This document shows, piece by piece, positions 21,563-44,434 of a stretch of 64,000 bases of DNA. The position numbers and the translations under genes were made by a program. A model generated the notes under the pieces. It was given only the letters and a program-made list of their open reading frames with translations, did not search any database and was not told the origin of the DNA. Each line of letters begins with the position of its first letter. Positions within the stretch are counted from its first letter, which is position 1. The stretch comes from Alphaproteobacteria bacterium (lineage in GTDB: Bacteria; Pseudomonadota; Alphaproteobacteria; JAQWUY01): assembly GCA_029250225.1 (NCBI GenBank), contig JAQWUY010000010.1, positions 5,209-69,208 on the forward strand, read 5' to 3'.

Positions 21563-21591
21563 TTGACAAGATAAGAATAATATCCTATTTA
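21563..21591 (+). promoter_or_regulatory. Putative sigma70 promoter of the lysis operon with an embedded 18-bp operator-like box
   Basis: TTGACA at 21563-21568, 17-nt spacer, weak -10 TATTTA. Box ATAAGAATAATATCCTAT at 21571-21588 matches the capsid promoter box at 17/18 positions. Confidence 0.75.
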
Positions 21592-21601
21592 TATAAACAA
21601 T

Positions 21602-21652
21602 AAACACCACAAGTGTATTCAAAATATGGATTCACTTAGTGGTGTTTTTTTT
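21602..21652 (+). terminator. Leader hairpin plus T-tract between the promoter and the first lysis gene (putative attenuator)
   Basis: AAACACCAC-AAGTG...CACTT-A-GTGGTGTTT followed by a T run. Confidence 0.7.
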
Positions 21653-21708: not shown

Positions 21709-22032
21709 ATGCAAATATTTAATGGAAATATAACATTTGGCACAGATGTAATAACGTGGATAGTATTTATTGAAATACCGATCTTTATTGCATTTATGAC
21801 ATACATAATAAAACAAAAAGAGACAATGAATAAGAATATAGATTTAGTAAAAATAAATATGGAAAAAAGATATCGTTATTTAAATGAAAAGATAAATAAT
21901 TATAAATTGGAAGTAGCAAAAAAATACGCTTCGGTTTCATATTTAAAAGACGTAGAAAATCGCTTAACCAATCATTTAATTCGTATAGAAGAAAAACTAG
22001 ATAATAAATTAACGAGGTTAGAAAATGAGTAA
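21709..22032 (+). CDS. Membrane-anchored coiled-coil protein, first gene of the phage-like lysis operon
   Basis: SD AAGGAAGG, one TM helix (ITWIVFIEIPIFIAFMTYII), then a coiled-coil segment ending RIEEKLD. Overlaps the endolysin start. Confidence 0.75.
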   Translation: MQIFNGNITFGTDVITWIVFIEIPIFIAFMTYIIKQKETMNKNIDLVKINMEKRYRYLNEKINNYKLEVAKKYASVSYLKDVENRLTNHLIRIEEKLDNKLTRLENE

Positions 22033-22486
22033 TTTGGATTTATTTATGAAACAAGTTTCTGATAACGAAGAACAACAAAATCATATCGATATTATGGCAC
22101 GAACGATATGGGGTGAAGCAAGAGGCGAAGGATTAAAAGGTATGGAAGCTGTTGGTTTTGTCATAATGAATAGATATAAAATATCGAAAATTAAAGGTAA
22201 ATTTTGGTGGGGTAATAACATTAGTGAAATATGTAAAAAGCCTTATCAATTTTCTTGTTGGAATAAAAAAGATGTAAATTACGAAAAATTAATTAATTTA
22301 ACAACTGATGATAAATTATTTACAACAGCAAAAAGAATCGCATCAAAACTAGTTCGTCTTAATAATAATCGTGATATAACAAATTGTGCTGACCATTATC
22401 ATACATTTAATACGAGACCGAATTGGCTTGATGTTGATAAAGTAGTTGCAAATATTGGCAATCATATTTTTTACAAACTATCATAA
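22025..22486 (+). CDS. Cell wall hydrolase, SleB/Hydrolase_2 family (putative endolysin)
   Basis: MARTIWGEARGE, AVGFVIMNR, YQFSCWN, ADHYH, IGNHIFY. No signal peptide. Confidence 0.92.
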   Translation: MSNLDLFMKQVSDNEEQQNHIDIMARTIWGEARGEGLKGMEAVGFVIMNRYKISKIKGKFWWGNNISEICKKPYQFSCWNKKDVNYEKLINLTTDDKLFTTAKRIASKLVRLNNNRDITNCADHYHTFNTRPNWLDVDKVVANIGNHIFYKLS

Positions 22487-22503: not shown

Positions 22504-22950
22504 ATGCTTACAAATATATTGTTAAAAACAGGTTTCCCTATATTAATTGATATAGTTAAAAACACTCTATTAAAAAGTAATGATGAAATAGCACAATCTG
22601 CGGGTAAACAATTAGATAAAATAACTAAATTACCAACAAATAAAGAATTATTACAATCAATAACAGAAATTGAAAAACGAGATAGTGAAAAAATAGGGCA
22701 AATAAATACATCACTTCGAACTGAGGTATTATCGCAAGATAAATATGTAAGGCGAATGAGACCTACATTTGGCTATATAATGGCTATTTCTTGGTTTATA
22801 CAAATGACAATAATAGCAATATCTGTAATTACTAACCCGCAAATATCAGGGGAAATAATTAGTTCTTTTGCAGAACTTAGTGTTATGTGGTCGGTTGGAT
22901 TATCTGTGCTAGGTGTTTATGTTTATAAACGAAGTGGCGAAAAAAAATAA
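22504..22950 (+). CDS. Holin resembling the GTA-type 3TM holin family
   Basis: INTSLRTEVLSQDKYVRRMRPTFGY followed by two C-terminal hydrophobic helices and the basic tail LGVYVYKRSGEKK. Adjacent to the endolysin. Confidence 0.82.
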   Translation: MLTNILLKTGFPILIDIVKNTLLKSNDEIAQSAGKQLDKITKLPTNKELLQSITEIEKRDSEKIGQINTSLRTEVLSQDKYVRRMRPTFGYIMAISWFIQMTIIAISVITNPQISGEIISSFAELSVMWSVGLSVLGVYVYKRSGEKK

Positions 22951-25603: not shown

Positions 25604-27091
25604 TTACAAAACTGTAAAATCATTTTGTGCTTTTGTTGGTTCGACTCCCCTATTCCACTTTGCTAATGTTTTACCGTTATAAGAACGGTTAAATCGCGTA
25701 GGTTCAAAATTTAAGCAATGAGAAACAGCATCTATCATATCATCTTTATTATTTTTTTCTGTTGGTTTAAAATCGCTTAGTTGTTCTAAAAACCCAGTTT
25801 TTATAATTTTTTTATTTATATACAAATGTTGAGCATCTAAAACACTATCAAATGCTGACATTATTCGATTATTTTTTATTTGTTTAGATGTAAAGGGAAG
25901 CACTGAAAGTTTTATATTTTTATTATCAAGTATTGATTTTAATAATTCTGGTAAAAATTTTCCCACTCCATTACTTTCTAAATTTATGCTAGGTAAATAA
26001 TTCCTTGTCGCAAAATCAATTACACTCAAACATTGCGAACGAGCAGGATCAATATTAGAGTATTTATTAACATCTATTTTTTCTAAATCTTGTAAATAAT
26101 ATTTACCATCATCACCTGTAAATACACACGCAATAACACTATCATCCCCACCAATGCTTCCATAAGATGGATCCCAAGAAGCAGAAACTGAATTCATTTT
26201 TACTCCATTAATGGATAATACAAATTTATTATTTTGATAAGATATCTCAATATTTCCATCGTATATTTTCACTTGTGATGAATTTAATCTAGACTCACTC
26301 GGATTCACACATTGTAATTGCATTTGTGAATTAAACTTTTCTTCTCCATGTCTAATTTTTAATAATTTTATTTCTTTTTCCGAAAATCGTTCTGCCCAAG
26401 ACGATTTACCTTTTTCATTTATTATAGGTATTTCAAGGCGATTAAAACCATATAAAAACGGTGATATGTCACCTATTTTATCTTTGCGATATATAGAATA
26501 ATAATTATGAGGTGTGCCAACATATAACTGCATTCCATTAGGAACTAGAATATAGTCAACTTCTCCTAATCTCTGCCTTAAACTTTCTCTCTTTGAAGCA
26601 GTTGCAGAAGTATTTGGAACTTCTACATCATCACATATTATTATATCTGCTCTACTTCCCGTAATATTTCCAAGTATTCCTTCGGCTGTCATTGAAGGGT
26701 CTCGTAATTCCATATCACGATTTACAGTAAAACAATTGCCCGCCCATTGTTCTGCTTTTTTAGGCTTTAAGTTTTTAGTTAATTCGTGTCTTTCAATAAT
26801 TCTTTTTACAGTTCGCACCATTTTTCTTGCTAAGTCGCTTTCCGCAGATATAACCATAATTCTAATACTGGGATTTAAATATAATACCCAAGCGCAAAAC
26901 AATCCAACCATAGTCGATTTACCTGCTCCACGAAATGCCATAAGTAGTGCTTTTTCATTCCCATCTATCCAACTTTTATGTAAAAAAGAAATAATTTTTT
27001 TATGAATATTTGGGGTAATAAAGTTTTGATTTTTATTCCACATTTCAACAAATTGTAAAAAATTTTTTTGATCTGGTAAAAAATTCCGCAT
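25604..27091 (-). CDS. terL: Phage terminase large subunit (T7 gp19-like)
   Basis: Walker A AFRGAGKST, GSRADIIICDDVE (Walker B), VGTPH, nuclease SWDPS, LESNG, DDMIDA. Uninterrupted 495-aa ORF. Confidence 0.93.
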   Translation of the reverse strand: MRNFLPDQKNFLQFVEMWNKNQNFITPNIHKKIISFLHKSWIDGNEKALLMAFRGAGKSTMVGLFCAWVLYLNPSIRIMVISAESDLARKMVRTVKRIIERHELTKNLKPKKAEQWAGNCFTVNRDMELRDPSMTAEGILGNITGSRADIIICDDVEVPNTSATASKRESLRQRLGEVDYILVPNGMQLYVGTPHNYYSIYRKDKIGDISPFLYGFNRLEIPIINEKGKSSWAERFSEKEIKLLKIRHGEEKFNSQMQLQCVNPSESRLNSSQVKIYDGNIEISYQNNKFVLSINGVKMNSVSASWDPSYGSIGGDDSVIACVFTGDDGKYYLQDLEKIDVNKYSNIDPARSQCLSVIDFATRNYLPSINLESNGVGKFLPELLKSILDNKNIKLSVLPFTSKQIKNNRIMSAFDSVLDAQHLYINKKIIKTGFLEQLSDFKPTEKNNKDDMIDAVSHCLNFEPTRFNRSYNGKTLAKWNRGVEPTKAQNDFTVL

Positions 27092-27167: not shown

Positions 27168-27461
27168 TTATGATTTAGGATATTTATTTTTTATTTCTAT
27201 TATTTTATCTTTCCATTTAGTCGTACCGTTAACTAAATCATGATAAATCAAATCTAGTTGTTCTGATATTTCAGGATATTCAGCTTGTCTTTCTTCTATG
27301 TAATTTATTTCTGTTATAGGTTTGACAATTTTACCGTTTTTTATTGTATCTCCTATATTGGCATCAGCTAAATAACCAACTGCCGAAATACCTCCTTGGA
27401 CTTCACCAACCACAATATTTTCAACTATATTATTTTTAATAATTAAATATTTATCACTCAT
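27168..27461 (-). CDS. Phage tail-fibre-associated small protein (assembly chaperone-like)
   Basis: C-terminal YIEERQAEYPEISEQLDLIYHD...WKDKIIEIKNKYPK is a pattern typical of small genes following phage tail fibres. Start overlaps the fibre stop codon. Confidence 0.7.
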   Translation of the reverse strand: MSDKYLIIKNNIVENIVVGEVQGGISAVGYLADANIGDTIKNGKIVKPITEINYIEERQAEYPEISEQLDLIYHDLVNGTTKWKDKIIEIKNKYPKS

Positions 27462-28822
27462 TATACATAATCAACTTCTATATATCCATTTGAACCCGTA
27501 TTGCCGTTGAAACCATATCCCAGATGACCATTATCATCTTTTCCTGCTAAACCACCAGCACCTACTATATAATCAAATACATCACCCGATGATAATACTT
27601 TTATAGCTTTAACTAAACCACCGTTTCTACCGTCTTGAGCGTATTTAAAATCATGTGATCCACCACCAGCACCATTACCGCCACCGCCGGCTATAACCAT
27701 TCCTCCAGAACCAGAAGCTCCTGTTTGACCAGCTGTATCATTTTCATATGCTCCTTTACCACCTCGACCACCATAAGCAGTAATGTGTAAAGAATAGATT
27801 GATGTATTGCCACCTCGACCACCGTGATTTCTTCTTTGTCTTTTCCAGCCGTGACCACCACCGCCGCCGCCGCCGGCAAGTTTAAATAAAACTTTTCCAG
27901 CAGGTAATTCTATATGATTTTTATTACTAGGCATCGTTCCGGTTGTTGATGATGATTGATCTGCTAACGACCAAACATTCGAAGGATTAATATTGTTAGG
28001 TAGTGAACCATCTGTATTTCGCACAAAAAACTTACCACTTTTTTGAGTAAATATTGATGTAGGTAAAGCTCCGCTTATACCCGAAATATCTGCTTTATTT
28101 TTAAAATCTTCATTAGAGACATTTGATAAATTTTTTCCTGCATAAATTTCATTCATTTCATCAACTAAGCCAGAAACCAACAATTTACTTTTAAAATCTT
28201 CATTAGAGACATTTGATAAATTTTTTCCTGCATAAATTTCATTCATTTCATTGTATTTAGTTTCTAATATTCTACGATTTCGCGTTGTAATATCAGCATT
28301 ATTTTTAGCATCGATAGAAAATCTCTCGGCCTGTAAAGTAGATTGAGATAAATCTTTATAAATTTTTGTTCTACCTAAACTATCAAAACCAAGTATACTA
28401 TTTGATCGTTTTTTTGCAGTTGGTAAAATCATATTCATATCATCATCTGATAAAGGTGTACGAATACTATCCTTAGAATATCTACCTACTTGTTGTAATA
28501 ACATTATAATTCTATCAAATTCTTCATTAATTACACTGGCACGAAAATCCTCGTTTTCTCTGAATATAGTTTGACGATTATAAGTCATATGACGATAAAT
28601 CGTAATACGAGTTCCAACACTAAGTGGTTGTGATAAATCAATATGTCCGCCAATTGTTTCTTTTAATATTGTGACTGTATAATTATTAAGCTCAATACCA
28701 TCTGATGTAATAACTTTAATATCTTGTTTATTTAAAACAGGAAAATTAAACTCAAACCTTGTTTTTTGCTCATCACCATCATTAATAGTATAATTTACTC
28801 TTGGGTTTAATCTTGATGTCAT
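27461..28822 (-). CDS. Podovirus-type tail fibre protein
   Basis: N-terminal anchor (DGDEQKTRFEFNFPV...DIKV...ITIYR...INEEFDRIIMLLQQ) resembles the T7 gp17-type attachment domain. It has central NLSNV repeats and a Gly-rich C-terminal domain. Confidence 0.85.
   Translation of the reverse strand: MTSRLNPRVNYTINDGDEQKTRFEFNFPVLNKQDIKVITSDGIELNNYTVTILKETIGGHIDLSQPLSVGTRITIYRHMTYNRQTIFRENEDFRASVINEEFDRIIMLLQQVGRYSKDSIRTPLSDDDMNMILPTAKKRSNSILGFDSLGRTKIYKDLSQSTLQAERFSIDAKNNADITTRNRRILETKYNEMNEIYAGKNLSNVSNEDFKSKLLVSGLVDEMNEIYAGKNLSNVSNEDFKNKADISGISGALPTSIFTQKSGKFFVRNTDGSLPNNINPSNVWSLADQSSSTTGTMPSNKNHIELPAGKVLFKLAGGGGGGGHGWKRQRRNHGGRGGNTSIYSLHITAYGGRGGKGAYENDTAGQTGASGSGGMVIAGGGGNGAGGGSHDFKYAQDGRNGGLVKAIKVLSSGDVFDYIVGAGGLAGKDDNGHLGYGFNGNTGSNGYIEVDYV
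28099..28251. repeat. Exact 63-bp direct repeat with 90-bp period inside the tail fibre gene
   Basis: 28099-28161 is identical to 28189-28251 and encodes EMNEIYAGKNLSNVSNEDFK twice in frame. Confidence 0.95.
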
Positions 28823-29204: not shown

Positions 29205-30842
29205 TTAATTAATCGAAACATCTGTTTTAATTGATAATATTGTAATTGGTAATGGACTATCACCTGATATATTCCACAAACTATCGCTACTATAATTTTG
29301 CCAACCTAGTATACTGATTGATTTATCACCGCTAAACAAAGAAATTGGTTTATTTAAAATTCCCTGTCCGAATTTTTGAAAAGATAATGTATTTGTTCTA
29401 CCGCCAACCTCAATTTTTAATGATGCAGTATTCTTTAATCGGATTGTAATATTGCGAATTCTTATTTTTCTGCCTGTTTGTTCACTAGATAAAGGTAATG
29501 ATTTAATTGTATGTTTATATTTATAACCCAAGAATATTTTGTTAGCTTTATTATTTAAATCAATGATTCCATTATTAACTACAACTTCTTTGTGTAAAAT
29601 ATTATCAGCAACTAACATTGCTTTTTTACCATTAAAGGTATCAAAACCACTAAATTGAAAAGCTGGTTCTTCTGTTTTTTTTATAATACAGCAATCCATT
29701 AATACCTCTTTTGAAAAAACCTCTAAGAAATATTGCTCTGCTCTTTTCACAACAGTGTAAATGTAATCTTTATTAGTTCCAACACTTATATATTGTCCAT
29801 CTGTTTCATATGATGACCACGCTGAAACACCTTCAACATAATCATTATTTAAAACAGCCATAGTTCCATCTTTTTTGACACAAAATAACCTATTATGTTT
29901 GAAACTAAATGCAATATCAGTAATATCTTTTGTCAAATGCTTTGATATCGATACAATTGGACAAGCCTTATAATTTAAAGACATATTTTCGTTTTGTTTA
30001 AAAGAATAAATATTATTACAATCTGAATTTACAAATAAAACTTCATCTTTTGTATCAACTACATTAATATTTGAATTTCTTGGTGAACCTATCGTAGTAT
30101 ATTTTTTCGCTAAAATTTTATTTGGCGTTATTGGGCTACCCTCAATAATCCATTCACCAGAATTTGTAAATAATATTAAATAAGAACTACAATACAAATT
30201 AGATATAAAATCATTACCCGTTGATAATAATTTAATATCTATTCCTTCATCATCTAAACTTTCTCCTAACGAAAAATCACTTTCTGAACCAGATCTAGAA
30301 AACCATATACGATTAGGATGCTCCTTTGTACCAGCAATAACTATACGACCTTGGAAAAAACCTATAGTTTTTGGATAACCACTTGAAGAATTAAATAAAT
30401 TATCTTCAAATCCTGAAAAATTAGTATCTTCTATGGAAAAAATATTATCTTGATAAGATATTCTTTTTATTGGATAATCACCAGAACAAATCCATAATGA
30501 ATTATTGTTTTCACTAAAAAATAAATTTTTCAATTTTGATTTAGGAAAAGGAGTAATAAGTTGCGTTATTTTACTTTTCCCCTTGTATATATCAACTTTT
30601 CTATCGTGAAAAACAGCCAAATAATCATCTTCTTGTACAGAAAAATTAATTAATCTTGCCTCGGTTGGTAATTCACCCAATAAAACAGAACCACTTCTTC
30701 TAATTACACCACCTGTATTTAAAACATTAACATTTATTAATTTACTTGCTCCATTATTATAAGTTTCTAAATCACCACGGCCATATAAATCAGATGTTAC
30801 TTCACCGCTGGTAAATGATGTTTTTAAAATTATTTGTTTCAT
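29205..30842 (-). CDS. Podovirus tail tubular protein B / nozzle-like protein
   Basis: N-terminal SFTSGEV...GRGDL..Y..G.....NV.....GGVIRRSGS, YPKTIGFFQGRIVIAG, IWFSRSG...F, VSAWS, PLPITILSI. Confidence 0.82.
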   Translation of the reverse strand: MKQIILKTSFTSGEVTSDLYGRGDLETYNNGASKLINVNVLNTGGVIRRSGSVLLGELPTEARLINFSVQEDDYLAVFHDRKVDIYKGKSKITQLITPFPKSKLKNLFFSENNNSLWICSGDYPIKRISYQDNIFSIEDTNFSGFEDNLFNSSSGYPKTIGFFQGRIVIAGTKEHPNRIWFSRSGSESDFSLGESLDDEGIDIKLLSTGNDFISNLYCSSYLILFTNSGEWIIEGSPITPNKILAKKYTTIGSPRNSNINVVDTKDEVLFVNSDCNNIYSFKQNENMSLNYKACPIVSISKHLTKDITDIAFSFKHNRLFCVKKDGTMAVLNNDYVEGVSAWSSYETDGQYISVGTNKDYIYTVVKRAEQYFLEVFSKEVLMDCCIIKKTEEPAFQFSGFDTFNGKKAMLVADNILHKEVVVNNGIIDLNNKANKIFLGYKYKHTIKSLPLSSEQTGRKIRIRNITIRLKNTASLKIEVGGRTNTLSFQKFGQGILNKPISLFSGDKSISILGWQNYSSDSLWNISGDSPLPITILSIKTDVSIN

Positions 30843-31387
30843 AATCTAACATCCGTTAAAATATTGAAATCAAGATTGGTATTCATTTCCTGAGATGCAT
30901 CAACAAGTCTAGCTTGCTTGAATTCATTTTCATATCTTCTAAATAAAAATTCTGTTCTTGTTGTACTATCTGTTAAAGGCAAACATATTTCAGCACATAT
31001 TCTAAAAACTAATACATTGTCAAAATAAGGCGGGAAATTTTCTTCCTCTGGACGGAAAATATAATCGACTTCAATATTTTGTGTTGTTGTAATTAAAATA
31101 TTATTATGTATTTGGTATTGATTAGCATTTACTTTTAATATTCTTAGACAATCTGCTGGCAATGAAAAATTATATAACCCTTTATCATCAACATTTAATA
31201 ATTGTAATCTTTTTGTTTTTATTGCAAATCGCCATTGATACGATGATAATAATCCATCGCGTATACCATCATAACTTTCTTTTAGAACCATTGCCTCAGA
31301 TGTATTTTCATTAAATCCTTGGATTGGTGTTACACCTATACTTACTAAAGCACGATTTACTAAATCAATTTTATTTTTTGCCATCAT
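30839..31387 (-). CDS. Podovirus tail tubular protein A / head-tail adaptor-like protein
   Basis: IDLVNRALVSIGVTPI, YD..RD.LL..YQWRFA, F.LPADCLRI, FPPYF, ARLVDASQ. SD AAAGGA supports ATG 31387 or 31384. Confidence 0.82.
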   Translation of the reverse strand: MMAKNKIDLVNRALVSIGVTPIQGFNENTSEAMVLKESYDGIRDGLLSSYQWRFAIKTKRLQLLNVDDKGLYNFSLPADCLRILKVNANQYQIHNNILITTTQNIEVDYIFRPEEENFPPYFDNVLVFRICAEICLPLTDSTTRTEFLFRRYENEFKQARLVDASQEMNTNLDFNILTDVRL

Positions 31388-31397
31388 TATTCCTTTC

Positions 31398-31427
31398 AAA
31401 AAAAAGCCCCCGAATGATTACGGGGGC
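31398..31427 (-). terminator. Strong intrinsic terminator between the capsid genes and tail genes
   Basis: Minus strand GCCCCCG-TAATCATT-CGGGGGC-TTTTTTTT. Confidence 0.9.
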
Positions 31428-31452: not shown

Positions 31453-31710
31453 TTAATCTGTGTCAGATACCGGCAATGCAAGCGGATCTTTAGTATCAAC
31501 AACACCATTATCATTTGTTGCAACAGATACAAAACCAACTTTATCAAGTGCTGAAACAATAATCATATCACCTACACGAAGCATTTCATTAGCACTGTTT
31601 AGGTAACCTTGTGTATCAACATCATCAATATTATCAGTTGTTTTTAAATGCCATAATGTAAAACCATTTGCATATGCTAATACTGATAAATCTGTAATTT
31701 TAAACGCCAT
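31453..31710 (-). CDS. Small protein co-transcribed with the capsid gene (candidate decoration/cement protein)
   Basis: 85 aa, strong SD GGAGG, LSVLAYANGFTLWH...GYLN.ANEMLRVGDMI. Lies between the capsid gene and the terminator. Confidence 0.75.
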   Translation of the reverse strand: MAFKITDLSVLAYANGFTLWHLKTTDNIDDVDTQGYLNSANEMLRVGDMIIVSALDKVGFVSVATNDNGVVDTKDPLALPVSDTD

Positions 31711-31721
31711 ATTTTACCTCC

Positions 31722-32561
31722 TTACTCTGCACATTCCATTTTAACAATACCATCGGTATCAATCACACCGGCACCTTGGCTCATCATATTATTGATAAAG
31801 AAAGATGCACGGTCACCGTGCCACGAAACATCAGTTTTTACATTACTACCTGATGCATGAGCAATAGAATTCTTGTGATACCAGTAACATTGTCTTGCTC
31901 CACTCTTAAGTGTTAAACCACTGTGTGGCAACCATAATGTTCCTAACCACCTTTTAGCTTGCGTTGTCTTCCAAGGTAAATCTTCTTTCCCAATGTATTC
32001 AGAATTTGCAAATTCTTTTATTTCCATTAGATCAGACCACTGCTTCCAACCAACAATCGCATACCTTTCACCATCATCAGCAACATCTTTTTCGCCTAAT
32101 TTTTCAAATGCTGATAATACTTTTTGTTTTGTTAAACCTTCTGATGATTTATATCCTGTTTTATTTACAGTAGTTGTATCAATCGATGCATTACTATCAA
32201 GTGCATTAATTATAAGTTCATCAGTTTTACGACCTAATGCATATGCACCCGCATTTGCAACTACCCTTTTTTCATCGTGGTTTATTTTTAATTCATCTAA
32301 TTTATCTAACCAATCACCTGCATAGTAATCATACAAAGATATTTCAATCGGTGTATGATTAATATTCATTACTGGAACTTGTCCATTACGAGATTTAATC
32401 CCCGCAGAACCCTTGCCAACGGCTTGAAAAGTTGTTGATGAACCTCTTACATTATTACGCGTGCGAACTGTTGTTCTTAGTTTAGAACCTGTGCGTTGAT
32501 ACGCCTGATGTACTTCTGCTTCAAAAGAGCGAATAAACGATAATTCAAGATTTTTACTCAT
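31722..32561 (-). CDS. Phage major capsid protein (podovirus type)
   Basis: FIRSFEAEVHQAYQRTGSKLRTTVR, DWLDKLDELK, AYALGRKTDELII, WSDLMEIKEFANSEYIG, MSQGAGVID. First gene of the virion operon, SD AAAGGA. Confidence 0.87.
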   Translation of the reverse strand: MSKNLELSFIRSFEAEVHQAYQRTGSKLRTTVRTRNNVRGSSTTFQAVGKGSAGIKSRNGQVPVMNINHTPIEISLYDYYAGDWLDKLDELKINHDEKRVVANAGAYALGRKTDELIINALDSNASIDTTTVNKTGYKSSEGLTKQKVLSAFEKLGEKDVADDGERYAIVGWKQWSDLMEIKEFANSEYIGKEDLPWKTTQAKRWLGTLWLPHSGLTLKSGARQCYWYHKNSIAHASGSNVKTDVSWHGDRASFFINNMMSQGAGVIDTDGIVKMECAE

Positions 32562-32622
32562 TTCTTAAATCCTTTCTTAATTATTATAATTCTTAGAGAA
32601 TAAATATTTTGATTACCCAAAT

Positions 32623-32651
32623 AAAAAAACACCCAGTAAAAATGGATGTTT
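32623..32651 (-). terminator. Leader hairpin plus T-tract upstream of the capsid gene (putative attenuator)
   Basis: Minus strand AAACATCCA-TTTTTAC-TGGGTGTTT-TTTT, a 9-bp stem with one G-U pair. Confidence 0.62.
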
Positions 32652-32770
32652 AAAAAAGGTCAATAATATTTATGTAAAGACTATGGGCTGTAAAAGTTAT
32701 CCATAAAAAACATTTAAATGATTAAAATATAATATATTTTAGATACACCTTCTGCATGTTTTCAAAATAT

Positions 32771-32799
32771 GTTATATAGGATTTTATTCTTATTGTCAA
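32771..32799 (-). promoter_or_regulatory. Putative sigma70 promoter of the virion operon with an embedded 18-bp operator-like box
   Basis: Minus strand TTGACA-17 nt-TATAAC. The spacer is occupied by ATAAGAATAAAATCCTAT (32793-32776). Confidence 0.8.
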
Positions 32800-39365: not shown

Positions 39366-39724
39366 ATAGGTAGCGGTGCAATTACATTGTTATGGGGGAA
39401 ATCCCTTACAATGAGGAAAGTCCGGGCTGTCCAACAAACGATACCAGTTAACGGCTGGCGGGGGTAACCCTAGGGAAAGTGGCACAGAAAGCAAACCACC
39501 TTGATTTATCAAGGTAAGGGTGAAAGGGTGTGGTAAGAGCACACCGCGTTGTTAGTAATAACAATGGCAGGCTAAACCCTATTGACAGCAACGCCTAAGG
39601 TCAGTATATGTGGGGGTGTTGGCGAAACATATACACATTGACTACGGGGGCAAGAGGTAAACAGTGATGTTTATCCCAGATGAATGATTGCGTAATAACA
39701 GAATCCGGCTTACAAGCTACCTAT
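39366..39724 (+). ncRNA. rnpB: RNase P RNA (bacterial type A)
   Basis: GAGGAAAGTCCGGGC, ACAGAAAGCAAACC, GGGTGAAAGGGTGTGGTAAGAGCACACC, AGATGAATG, ACAGAATCCGGCTTA. The termini ATAGGTAGC and GCTACCTAT pair as P1. Confidence 0.96.
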
Positions 39725-40338
39725 TTCTTATTATATAAATTTTTAAAATTGATAGCTGTTTCAGTTATATCTTGGGTTTCAAATAAACCACTTATAACTG
39801 CTATGCCATCACTACCATTATCAATTAAAGCTTTGGCATTATTTAATGTAATGCCCCCTATTGCCACACAAGGAATTAATATTTTATCACGCAATGCTTT
39901 AAACCCATCAACACCTATTGGTTTGCCGGCGTTTGATTTTGTACCTGTTTCGTAAACCGCTCCGATACCGACATAATCAACCACTGAAACATCTAGATTT
40001 TTTAATTCTTGCATATTACCAACAGATAAACCAATGATTGCTGAATTACCTAAATAATCCCTAGCTGATTTTGCTTTCATATCGTTTTGTCCTAAATGAA
40101 CACCATCAGCATCAACGGTTTTTGCTACATCGACAGCATCGTTTATTATTAGTGGGATATTATGTGGGGTAATGATTTCTTGTAATGAACCTGCTTGTTT
40201 TATCATATCAAGTGTTTCAATATTTTTTGGGCGGTATTGTAATACATCAATCCCGCCGGCAACAGCTTTTTCAACTTTGTCGAGCATAGTTTGTGTATCC
40301 CACCTATAATCTGTGATTGCGTAGAGATTGTATCGCAT
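39721..40338 (-). CDS. thiE: Thiamine-phosphate synthase
   Basis: LYAITD, QYRPK, IIND, GVHLGQND, TGTK, AIGGI, GIAVIS. Confidence 0.95.
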   Translation of the reverse strand: MRYNLYAITDYRWDTQTMLDKVEKAVAGGIDVLQYRPKNIETLDMIKQAGSLQEIITPHNIPLIINDAVDVAKTVDADGVHLGQNDMKAKSARDYLGNSAIIGLSVGNMQELKNLDVSVVDYVGIGAVYETGTKSNAGKPIGVDGFKALRDKILIPCVAIGGITLNNAKALIDNGSDGIAVISGLFETQDITETAINFKNLYNKK

Positions 40339-43462: not shown

Positions 43463-44268
43463 TACCAAACCTTGTAAAAATGATTTATTGGACCGGAACC
43501 TGAACCTATATCAAGTTCATCAGACCTTGCAACAGCACCAGCAATATAATTTTTTGCATTTTGCACTGATGTTTTAATATCGTTTCCTTTCGCAACAAAA
43601 CTAGCAATAGCCGAAGACATAGAACAACCCGTACCGTGGGTGTTTTTAGTATTAATTCGTGGAGAAGTCATAGAAATTATATCACTTCCATCGTAATATA
43701 AATCGTGTAATACATCACCTTGCATATGTCCACCTTTTAATAAAACAGATTTTGCTCCCAACTTTAATAATTCAACACAATAATCTTCCATATCTTGTAA
43801 ATTAGGTTGAGTTGTTTTATTTAAAAGAACCATTGCCTCAGGTATATTCGGAGTAATAATATCAGAAGAAGGAATAAGACGCTGTTTTAAAGCATCAACT
43901 CCTTCCTCATTTAATAATTTACAACCAGACTTAGAAATCATAACCGGATCAAGTACAATATTTTTAGCCCCTAGTGATCTTAGAGCCGATGCAACCGCAA
44001 ATGTTAATTCAGGTGTTCCTAACATTCCTATTTTAACCGCATCAATATCTAAGTCATCGTAAACTGTTTCAATTTGCTCAATAACAAATTCAGGCGAAAC
44101 AGGAAATATAGAACGAACTTCACGAGTATTTTGTGCTGTTAATGCTGTGATAACTGATGCACCATATACACCAAGTGCAGACATTACTTTTAAATCGGCT
44201 TGTATACCGGCGCCACCGCCACTATCAGAACCAGCAATAGTTAAGCACACAGGTATTTTTTGTTTCAT
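43462..44268 (-). CDS. thiD: Hydroxymethylpyrimidine/phosphomethylpyrimidine kinase
   Basis: LTIAGSDSGGGAGIQADLK, TALTAQNT, KIGML, DPVM, TPNIPEA, THGTGC. Confidence 0.97.
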   Translation of the reverse strand: MKQKIPVCLTIAGSDSGGGAGIQADLKVMSALGVYGASVITALTAQNTREVRSIFPVSPEFVIEQIETVYDDLDIDAVKIGMLGTPELTFAVASALRSLGAKNIVLDPVMISKSGCKLLNEEGVDALKQRLIPSSDIITPNIPEAMVLLNKTTQPNLQDMEDYCVELLKLGAKSVLLKGGHMQGDVLHDLYYDGSDIISMTSPRINTKNTHGTGCSMSSAIASFVAKGNDIKTSVQNAKNYIAGAVARSDELDIGSGSGPINHFYKVW

Positions 44269-44272
44269 ATTA

Positions 44273-44361
44273 CCATTCCCTTCGTAAGTATTAACTAACA
44301 GGTTCAACGGGTAAGGAATAAAATAAAATCATCCTATCTCAACAAATATGTACCCCGATGG
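44273..44361 (-). promoter_or_regulatory. TPP riboswitch
   Basis: Minus strand CCATCGGGGTAC...TGAGA...ACCCGTTGAACCTG..GTTAATAC..CGAAGGGAATGG immediately before the thiD ATG. The SD lies within the aptamer 3' strand. Confidence 0.9.
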
Positions 44362-44434
44362 AATTAAAATTATGCTATACAAAAAAGAAAATTAAGTAAA
44401 GACTTTTTTTGAAATTAATTGTATAAAATAAATT

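Follow-up and report, generated by a model that had tools for sequence, protein, structure and literature searches.

The closest described relative of the system considered here is RogA of Caulobacter crescentus, a 213-amino-acid (aa) LexA/cI-like repressor without catalytic residues, which its published account reports in 819 of 1,331 alphaproteobacterial genomes (Gozzi et al. 2022, PMC9632790). In chromatin immunoprecipitation sequencing RogA was enriched at the gafYZ promoter and one other promoter only, and in vitro it binds gafYZ core-promoter fragments carrying GGAA-N4-TTCC inverted repeats (PMC9632790). Within the Caulobacter gene transfer agent (GTA), CcGTA, GafZ is described as acting by antitermination, and GafY as autoactivating gafYZ and activating the dispersed GTA loci through an element that lies far upstream of the -35 and needs IHF (PMC11150451). 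In BaGTA, the capsid promoter is reported as TTGACA-N17-TATCAT, with a long attenuating leader and the Q21-like protein BrrG bound at the promoter (Korotaev et al., bioRxiv 10.1101/2024.11.20.624540). Here we analysed a 64,000-nucleotide (nt) stretch of an alphaproteobacterial genome (assembly GCA_029250225.1, contig JAQWUY010000010.1, positions 5,209 to 69,208; hereafter the window), in which a set of phage-type lysis genes and an operon of capsid, tail and terminase genes on the opposite strand are preceded by nearly the same 18-bp box. We consider it probable that this box is a RogA-type operator which occludes the core promoters of a single regulon, with the predicted repressor encoded elsewhere in the genome.

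The original prediction, made from the letters of the window, placed two boxes behind TTGACA hexamers, alike at 17 of 18 positions and filling the spacer between -35 and -10, and re-reading of the sequence bore this out (Table 1). The single difference between the two boxes lies at box position 11. Their half-sites, ATAAGA and TCCTAT (reverse complement ATAGGA), are symmetric at five of six positions, in agreement with the dyad close to ATAGGA-N6-TCCTAT that had been described, and box positions 4–7 and 12–15 form an AGAA-N4-ATCC core. The box fills a 17-nt spacer, and its last one to three bases are the start of the putative -10. Across the whole assembly (1,197,446 bp in 48 contigs, 31% G+C), the pattern ATAAGAATAWWATCCTAT, with 16 fixed positions, has exactly three exact copies. 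The third (site 3) reads TTGACA-TA-ATAAGAATATTATCCTAT and lies outside the window on contig C11, 40 nt upstream of a scaffold gene. All three copies begin 0–2 nt past a perfect TTGACA and all precede phage-type genes, the variation among them being confined to positions 10 and 11 at the centre of the dyad. By comparison, exact copies averaged 0.0, and copies at up to one mismatch 0.25, over 20 genomes simulated with a third-order Markov model. The occurrence of the box is real and far from chance. The next-best genomic match, with two mismatches and within coding sequence on contig C46, is probably a chance one. When the pattern was loosened to ATARGA-N6-TCYTAT, four genomic sites were found, or eight strand-counts, where the simulated genomes averaged 1.5 and never exceeded 4. 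The fourth site (contig C19:29223-29240; L002 5224-5241) is a perfect AT palindrome, ATAAGATATATATCTTAT, directly behind TTTACA and about 55 nt upstream of a housekeeping-looking, unannotated 133-aa open reading frame (ORF); it lacks the AGAA/ATCC core and is probably also due to chance.

The genes downstream of the boxes are those that had been named, lysis genes on the plus strand (matches to Hydrolase_2 and GTA_holin_3TM) and a capsid gene on the minus strand (Phage_capsid_2). The minus-strand operon runs in the order capsid, 85-aa protein, tail tubular A, tail tubular B, a 110-aa ORF, tail fibre, a 97-aa ORF and large terminase subunit (TerL). The scaffold gene at site 3 is a lone gene among cobalamin-synthesis genes, and its 256-aa product matches Phage_T7_Capsid, the T7 scaffold family. 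A fourth locus, on contig C5, encodes a T7-type portal (Head-tail_con, E 1e-72) behind two small ORFs that we term ORF-A and ORF-B. Capsid, tail tubular A and B, fibre, TerL, lysis, scaffold and portal genes, in four loci on three contigs, make up what we call the element; by its sequence matches it is a scattered, structural-only, T7-like podovirus-derived gene set, and GTA-like. That the box would be the operator of one regulator joining the separated modules is supported by the third copy before a T7-type scaffold gene, together with the boxes at gafYZ promoters described below. The box had also been put forward as a tag for finding the remaining genes in a genome scan. This succeeded for the scaffold gene, a kind of hit that had been named in advance as support. 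A full box is, however, absent from the portal operon and the candidate repressor gene, and a scan for it therefore misses part of the element.

When one genome per prokaryote species was scanned for the exact pattern, at least 118 matches came up. Among the 118 matches listed, most are single matches in unrelated, mostly AT-rich taxa, as chance allows. Eight of those listed are exact boxes about 50 nt before an operon encoding Bac_DnaA_C and DUF6456 proteins (gafY-gafZ); they come from genomes of 65–69% G+C (Bosea, Bradyrhizobiaceae and relatives) and stand behind a -35-like hexamer of the TTGCCA, TTGTCA or TTGTAA type. Two others on the list (L078, L138) lie 200–330 nt before T7-like capsid genes, 60% identical to that of the window, in the arrangement TTGAC(T/A)-N2-box. 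Exact TTGACA/TTTACA-N2-box promoters also occur with no element gene nearby (L101, L153, L151, L131, L241/L252, L245, L251), in other Alphaproteobacteria and in metagenome contigs, and several of them stand before long ORF-poor stretches. By eye, the box at L101 follows nadA-like and nadC-like ORFs; the capsid promoter of the window likewise adjoins nadA.

The original prediction expected the repressor to be encoded elsewhere, and the genome offers a candidate on contig C5 (C5:5484-6113, minus strand), divergent from the ORF-A/ORF-B/portal operon. The predicted protein, about 210 aa long, combines a helix-turn-helix (HTH) with a Peptidase_S24 domain (26.9 bits against a cut-off of 23.3) and aligns over its full length with homologues of 208–215 aa. 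It is one of two S24 proteins in the genome, the other being canonical LexA, and it has no structure match beyond the S24 domains of LexA and UmuD. We examined 31 loci by tblastn, 30 of them fetched by portal similarity and one from a genome of the same genus (G001), with flanks of 1.5 kb. ORF-A was found in 26 of these and ORF-B in 28; the repressor turned up in 17 or more, a count limited by the flanks. The recurring gene order is repressor, divergent ORF-A, ORF-B, portal. All five box-bearing genomes tested contain exactly one strong repressor homologue, with 53–57% identity over 209 residues; their second matches are weak (32–36%, over part of the S24 region) and are probably LexA. Class-wide there are at least 8000 homologues, of which the best 120 carry Bosea- and Chelatococcus-type names only. 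The first ~75 residues, comprising the HTH, are the best-conserved part among seven aligned sequences, in keeping with an operator whose letters are unchanged between genomes of 31% and 69% G+C. Length, domains, class-wide spread and the presence of the box at gafYZ in genomes with a single homologue point indirectly to a possible orthology of the candidate with C. crescentus RogA (CCNA_00080).

Box-like sites accompany repressor genes in other genomes as well. The 30 loci fetched by portal similarity, and hence chosen without the box, contain 13 box-like matches (up to three mismatches of 16), and 10 of the 13 lie in the repressor/ORF-A intergenic region or, at a contig end, directly upstream of ORF-A. 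Among these ten are sites in genomes of 60–71% G+C and a perfect palindrome, ATAAGAATAAGTTCTTAT. In one genome (G306), the box-like site is 7 nt upstream of the -35 of the ORF-A promoter and a half-box occupies the spacer, while Bosea-type repressor genes have a box with three to four mismatches about 60 nt upstream. The box thus appears to travel with the repressor gene. What it is attached to differs between genomes. In the class samples, the T7-like portal (36 strong matches) and DUF6456/GafZ (38 matches) share no genome, and T7-like portal or capsid and GafZ were never together in ten single-genome checks either. Four Bosea-type genomes with a gafYZ box are without a T7-like capsid, and five element-bearing genomes are without DUF6456; kinship among the genomes precludes a formal test of this exclusion. 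For the window genome, tblastn with three gafY-gafZ pairs gave nothing below E 2, and DUF6456 was not found. From these distributions, the same repressor/operator pair seems to serve two circuits, controlling gafYZ in some genomes and the T7-like element directly in others.

A metagenome scan with the box returned 13 loci. Each of two lineages (97–98% and 88–90% nucleotide identity) has all three orthologous promoters, a third sample has two of the three and a fourth has one; four further matches are without element genes nearby. TTGACA and the box are unchanged in these lineages and the 2-nt linker varies, with the non-coding flanks differing at 112 of 491 positions (~23%) in the more distant lineage. 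The unchanged -35 of site 1 is to be read with the pattern used for fetching, which included TTGACA. Once one site identifies a metagenome lineage, its other two sites are also intact. A Fisher test on the footprint alignments (variable columns: core 1/72, flank 130/494) was set aside, the loci having been fetched with the box.

In the candidate repressor of the window genome, as in that of G001, the catalytic serine is gone (GDSM aligned to NDY) and so is the FAQAG cleavage region, which makes self-cleavage unlikely. G005-, Bosea- and G306-type repressors keep both the serine and the FAQAG region. A different input is suggested by GTTC-N7-GTTC, which we take to be the alphaproteobacterial LexA box. 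It has 16 copies in the genome, one of which lies in the repressor/ORF-A intergenic region (C5:6266-6280; L003 610-624), and a nearly identical copy is directly upstream of lexA (C14 ~117534-117548). The intergenic copy is conserved in G001, and among the class loci the motif is present in that region in 13 of 26, and 14 of the 17 matches in those loci lie in it. Conservation of a LexA-box-like site at this junction makes an SOS input likely. Its target may be the repressor gene, ORF-A (a possible antirepressor) or both.

The leaders behind the two promoters of the window contain further structure (Table 1). The lysis-leader hairpin starts a few bases past the expected transcription start, folds at -20.9 kcal/mol (z-score -5.9; 0 of 200 shuffled sequences fold equally well) and is identical in four of four related lineage sequences. 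It is homologous to the first of two terminators in the G001 capsid leader, which also include a stronger homologue of the terminator-like hairpin of the window's capsid leader, and the lysis promoter and leader together are paralogous to those of the capsid gene. Terminators in the leaders of two of the three sites suggest an added layer of attenuation.

We infer binding of the box by the C5 protein, the repression that follows and the mode of its release from these sequence features, and propose the following scheme. A repressor dimer would sit on the dyad (core AGAA-N4-ATCC, outer ATAAGA/TCCTAT), covering the spacer and the start of the -10. Bound in this way it would keep RNA polymerase off three otherwise strong TTGACA promoters, so that the lysis unit, the capsid-tail-terminase operon and the relocated scaffold gene would be repressed together. 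The repressor would be supplied from contig C5, divergent from the portal operon of the same element. Release would come through an SOS-linked input at the LexA box in the repressor/ORF-A intergenic region; since the repressor lacks the catalytic serine, we postulate release by an antirepressor or by reduced synthesis rather than by self-cleavage. The terminators in two of the leaders would then add an attenuation step.

Several observations weigh against this reading. Within the same genus, the capsid promoter of G001 is TTGACA-TTAGGAAAAAAATCATAT-ATAAC; phylogenetic footprinting, which had been suggested as a check, found the box intact at orthologous promoters in the metagenome lineages fetched with it, but in G001 only 14 of 18 positions agree at the capsid promoter and no such promoter precedes the lysis genes. 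The G001 box departs from the pattern in this way, yet the HTH of the G001 repressor is much like that of the window genome. In a genome of the same family (G003), little is retained but a GGAA-like left half, and box matches at up to two mismatches in G001, G003, G005 and G026 are at the level of the reversed-pattern control. The metagenome footprint is only partly independent, because its loci were fetched with the box itself. Across the class, a box-like site occurs in only three of 30 gafZ loci within the flanks examined. Compared with the published RogA motif, as given in the text of that account, the AGAA-N4-ATCC core has the same geometry but agrees at only three of four bases per half. 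The repressor/portal intergenic region of the window genome holds half-site-like words and no full box. Lastly, the -10 hexamers are weak (3–5 of 6, no T at position 6), so that promoter geometry is itself inferred: a consensus promoter scan did not list the box promoters of sites 1 and 2, because their -10 hexamers lack the T at position 6, and the -10 assignments were therefore made by inspection.

The terminator-like hairpins with U-tracts downstream of the promoters at sites 1 and 2 also permit another mode of control, in which a processive antiterminator loads at the box. The promoters would then be constitutive, transcripts would stop at the leader terminators and a factor, for example ORF-A, would give read-through; lambda Q binds between the -35 and -10 of PR'. 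The two terminators of the G001 capsid leader, the invariance of the lysis-leader hairpin and the terminator after the capsid module would suit such a factor, and precedents are described in BrrG of BaGTA (bioRxiv 10.1101/2024.11.20.624540) and GafZ of CcGTA (PMC11150451). We nevertheless regard this explanation as unlikely, given that the scaffold leader at site 3 has no terminator, that the same box stands before gafYZ with leaders of ~50 nt and that the published binder of gafYZ core promoters is a repressor (PMC9632790). The DUF6456 search, moreover, found no GafZ in the genome, and the predicted structures of ORF-A and ORF-B, the small ORFs folded in the antiterminator search (predicted local distance difference test, pLDDT, 91 and 86), match no PDB entry at E <= 0.001, with ORF-A also matching nothing viral in BFVD, Q included. 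Antitermination can coexist with repression as a second tier. A box shared by gafYZ and phage-type promoters could alternatively be an activator site, whether for a MerR-like protein in the spacer or a GafY-like protein common to GTA promoters, as Caulobacter GafY activates both gafYZ and dispersed GTA loci (PMC11150451). We find this quite improbable: the Caulobacter GafY element has its distant, IHF-dependent position, neither gafY nor gafZ was recovered from the window genome, and a 17-nt spacer with a perfect -35 needs no activator.

It is also conceivable, though very improbable, that no dedicated regulator exists and that a single ancestral phage promoter was recently copied to give all three, whose likeness would then be inherited and not selected. 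The paralogy of the lysis and capsid promoters and leaders is what copying would produce, as is the match of the window genome's lysis-leader hairpin to the capsid leader of G001, and the scaffold promoter was apparently acquired after relocation of its gene. Against inheritance alone, the same 18-mer recurs in genomes of 65–69% G+C and before capsid genes just 60% identical, the capsid and lysis leaders have decayed while their boxes remain 17/18 alike, and the similarity of site 3 is limited to ~40 bp of promoter. T7-like phages have conserved promoters of ~20 bp, and with T7-like structural genes downstream the box might be the promoter of a T7-type single-subunit RNA polymerase. PF00940 was not found in the genome, a weak argument as the search matched no control genome either; what chiefly led us to drop this hardly credible reading is that the box follows a bacterial -35 with sigma-70 spacing and recurs at gafYZ in genomes that have no T7-like capsid. 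Repression through a RogA-type operator remains the explanation that we prefer.

Table 1. Promoter elements, leader structures and phage-type genes of the two box-bearing units, in window coordinates
Feature	Position	Strand	Remarks
-35 TTGACA, lysis-unit promoter (site 1)	21563..21568	+	sequence; followed by AG linker
18-bp box, site 1 ATAAGAATAATATCCTAT, putative RogA-type operator	21571..21588	+	
Putative -10 TATTTA, site 1	21586..21591	+	by inspection; 17-nt spacer; first 3 bases are the box end
Lysis-leader hairpin followed by U8, intrinsic-terminator-like	21602..21652	+	folding
First lysis-unit gene, 107 aa (phrog_29007)	21709..22032	+	unknown function
Cell-wall hydrolase (Hydrolase_2), candidate endolysin	22025..22486	+	
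Holin (GTA_holin_3TM)	22504..22950	+	
Large terminase subunit	25604..27091	-	
Tail-fibre protein	27461..28822	-	N-terminal adaptor matches tail-fibre PHROGs
Tail tubular protein B-like (phrog_376)	29205..30842	-	
Tail tubular protein A-like (phrog_394)	30839..31399	-	
7-pair all-GC hairpin and U8 between capsid/85-aa genes and tail genes	31406..31427	-	putative internal terminator
85-aa protein (phrog_18004)	31453..31710	-	
Major capsid protein (Phage_capsid_2)	31722..32561	-	E 3.7e-77
Terminator-like hairpin and U7, capsid leader, 9 pairs	32620..32651	-	-11.4 kcal/mol, z -2.7
Conserved capsid-leader hairpin TATGG-ATAACTTTTACAGC-CCATA with GGAYAAC motif	32682..32705	-	
Putative -10 TATAAC, site 2	32771..32776	-	by inspection; 17-nt spacer; identical hexamer in G001
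18-bp box, site 2 ATAAGAATAAAATCCTAT	32776..32793	-	abuts -35 directly; then ATAAC
-35 TTGACA, capsid-operon promoter (site 2)	32794..32799	-	

The conserved hairpin of the capsid leader has its stem altered on both sides in G001 (TGTGG/CCACA), and in both genomes the GGAYAAC word is in the loop. GGAYAAC-like words, often twice, can be seen by eye in the capsid leaders of relatives from 30 to 72% G+C (L005-L018). The putative internal terminator behind the capsid and 85-aa genes has a counterpart in T7, where gene 10 is likewise followed by a terminator. A 102-aa ORF directly upstream of the capsid promoter has no family match. Among known RNA families, the window has none at gathering level except RNase P RNA and a TPP riboswitch, both outside the leaders (266.8 bits at 39366-39728, plus strand, and 59.7 bits at 44260-44367, minus strand, respectively), and eight capsid loci gave sub-threshold matches only.

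The modules of the element are embedded among host genes (pyrD, HAD, acyltransferase, nadA, cobalamin, dcd, murA); pyrD, the HAD hydrolase and the acyltransferase sit between the lysis genes and the terminase, and nadA is beside the capsid promoter. No replication or integration genes adjoin any structural module, although no whole-genome search for them was made. The arrangement is that by which a GTA is recognised: structural, packaging and lysis genes dispersed among host genes, with no replication or integration genes adjoining. Against 50,697 phage records, the capsid protein of the element reaches no more than 54% identity, the best match being an unannotated 5-kb fragment; it has matches in 17 of 61 genomes (the window genome included), two of them only distant, and 15 relatives are 52–82% identical. 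In the class sample the portal occurs in 57 of 301 genomes, mostly as a single copy. In G005 and G306 the element is contiguous, and its flank synteny is conserved between the window genome and G001. The scaffold gene stands alone only in the window genome; in G001 and G003 it follows the portal, within the portal operon and without a TTGACA-box promoter, and the box promoter was therefore gained in the window genome upon relocation of the scaffold gene. The scaffold homologue of G003 (C1:216021-216644, L024) has one in-frame TGA and a portal homologue (L050, genome G256) has two TAA codons, and the element may be decaying in some lineages.

ORF-A (~108 aa; EEAWFWF...RPCEP.DI) and ORF-B (131 aa; RHCF, TCVE) are conserved before the portal across the class (L003 700-1450, contig C5 in the window genome). 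They belong to no Pfam, NCBIfam or PHROG family, and there is no ATG, GTG or TTG at the start of the conserved N-terminus of ORF-A. A search for ORF-A homologues gave two proteins among seven candidates. Alignment A3 holds 24 of the 26 ORF-A sequences, the short L046 and L065 being excluded, and alignment A4 holds 19 of the 28 ORF-B sequences, with L046 and L053 excluded for an in-frame stop, together with L050, L052, L056, L059, L065, L067 and L070.

The repressor family and its role in GTA control are known. In the literature searched (openly readable texts, no supplements), we found no direct wiring of it to a dispersed podovirus-derived element; nor did these texts describe, for Alphaproteobacteria, any T7-like element of GTA-like character or its control by RogA. 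More tentatively, and with the odds somewhat against it, the box and its LexA/CI-like repressor could be the immunity module of an undescribed, structural-only, T7-like GTA-like element present in about one-fifth of the sampled alphaproteobacterial species, the same pair controlling either the element or RcGTA-type gafYZ. If so, RogA-type control would be an ancient, portable switch that two independently domesticated phages have in common, with an SOS signal entering through the LexA box at the repressor/ORF-A junction. Should the main reading hold, one short operator would unite scattered genes that are otherwise annotated as unrelated phage remnants, and would tie the element to a regulator family so far known only from RcGTA-type agents. 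It would then be testable whether small-genome Alphaproteobacteria produce podovirus-type GTA-like particles, in what way a repressor without self-cleavage is released, with a LexA box and two conserved proteins of unknown function at the switch, and whether RogA-type control is older than, or was borrowed between, two phage domestications. Podovirus-like particles with DNA spread evenly over the host genome have been described for a soybean Bradyrhizobium strain, in a report that recognised no GTA genes (bioRxiv 10.1101/2022.05.06.490963).

Compared with lambdoid CI/LexA-type immunity, the system shares a predicted dimeric HTH-S24 repressor, dyad operators in core promoters and a divergent repressor/early-operon layout. 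In contrast, the promoters it would target are late ones, for structural and lysis genes, and are spread over three or more contigs, its repressor, having lost Ser and FAQAG, is predicted not to self-cleave, and no replication or integration module adjoins the structural genes. The LexA-controlled antirepressor switches of coliphage 186 (Tum) and the Gifsy phages resemble it in having a non-cleavable repressor and a LexA box beside a small gene divergent from it; here, however, no antirepressor activity is known for ORF-A or ORF-B, and the LexA box may instead control the repressor gene. BaGTA, as described, offers the same TTGACA-N17 promoter, a long terminator-bearing capsid leader, a regulator site at the promoter and coordination of separate loci, but the window genome has no identified Q-like protein, one of its three units is without a terminator and its capsid genes are T7-like. 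RogA comes closest. The RogA target differs in that gafYZ is absent here and it is the structural and lysis promoters themselves, not that of an activator gene, which carry the box. The half-sites are AGAA/ATCC instead of GGAA/TTCC, and the candidate repressor gene is syntenic with the portal operon. What the two systems have in common, so far as the published account describes RogA, is a LexA/cI-like HTH and S24-like repressor of ~210 aa with its catalytic residues missing, a site, putative here, within the core promoter in which 4 nt separate two inverted half-sites, and, as predicted here, the silencing of a phage-derived, lysis-coupled particle system.

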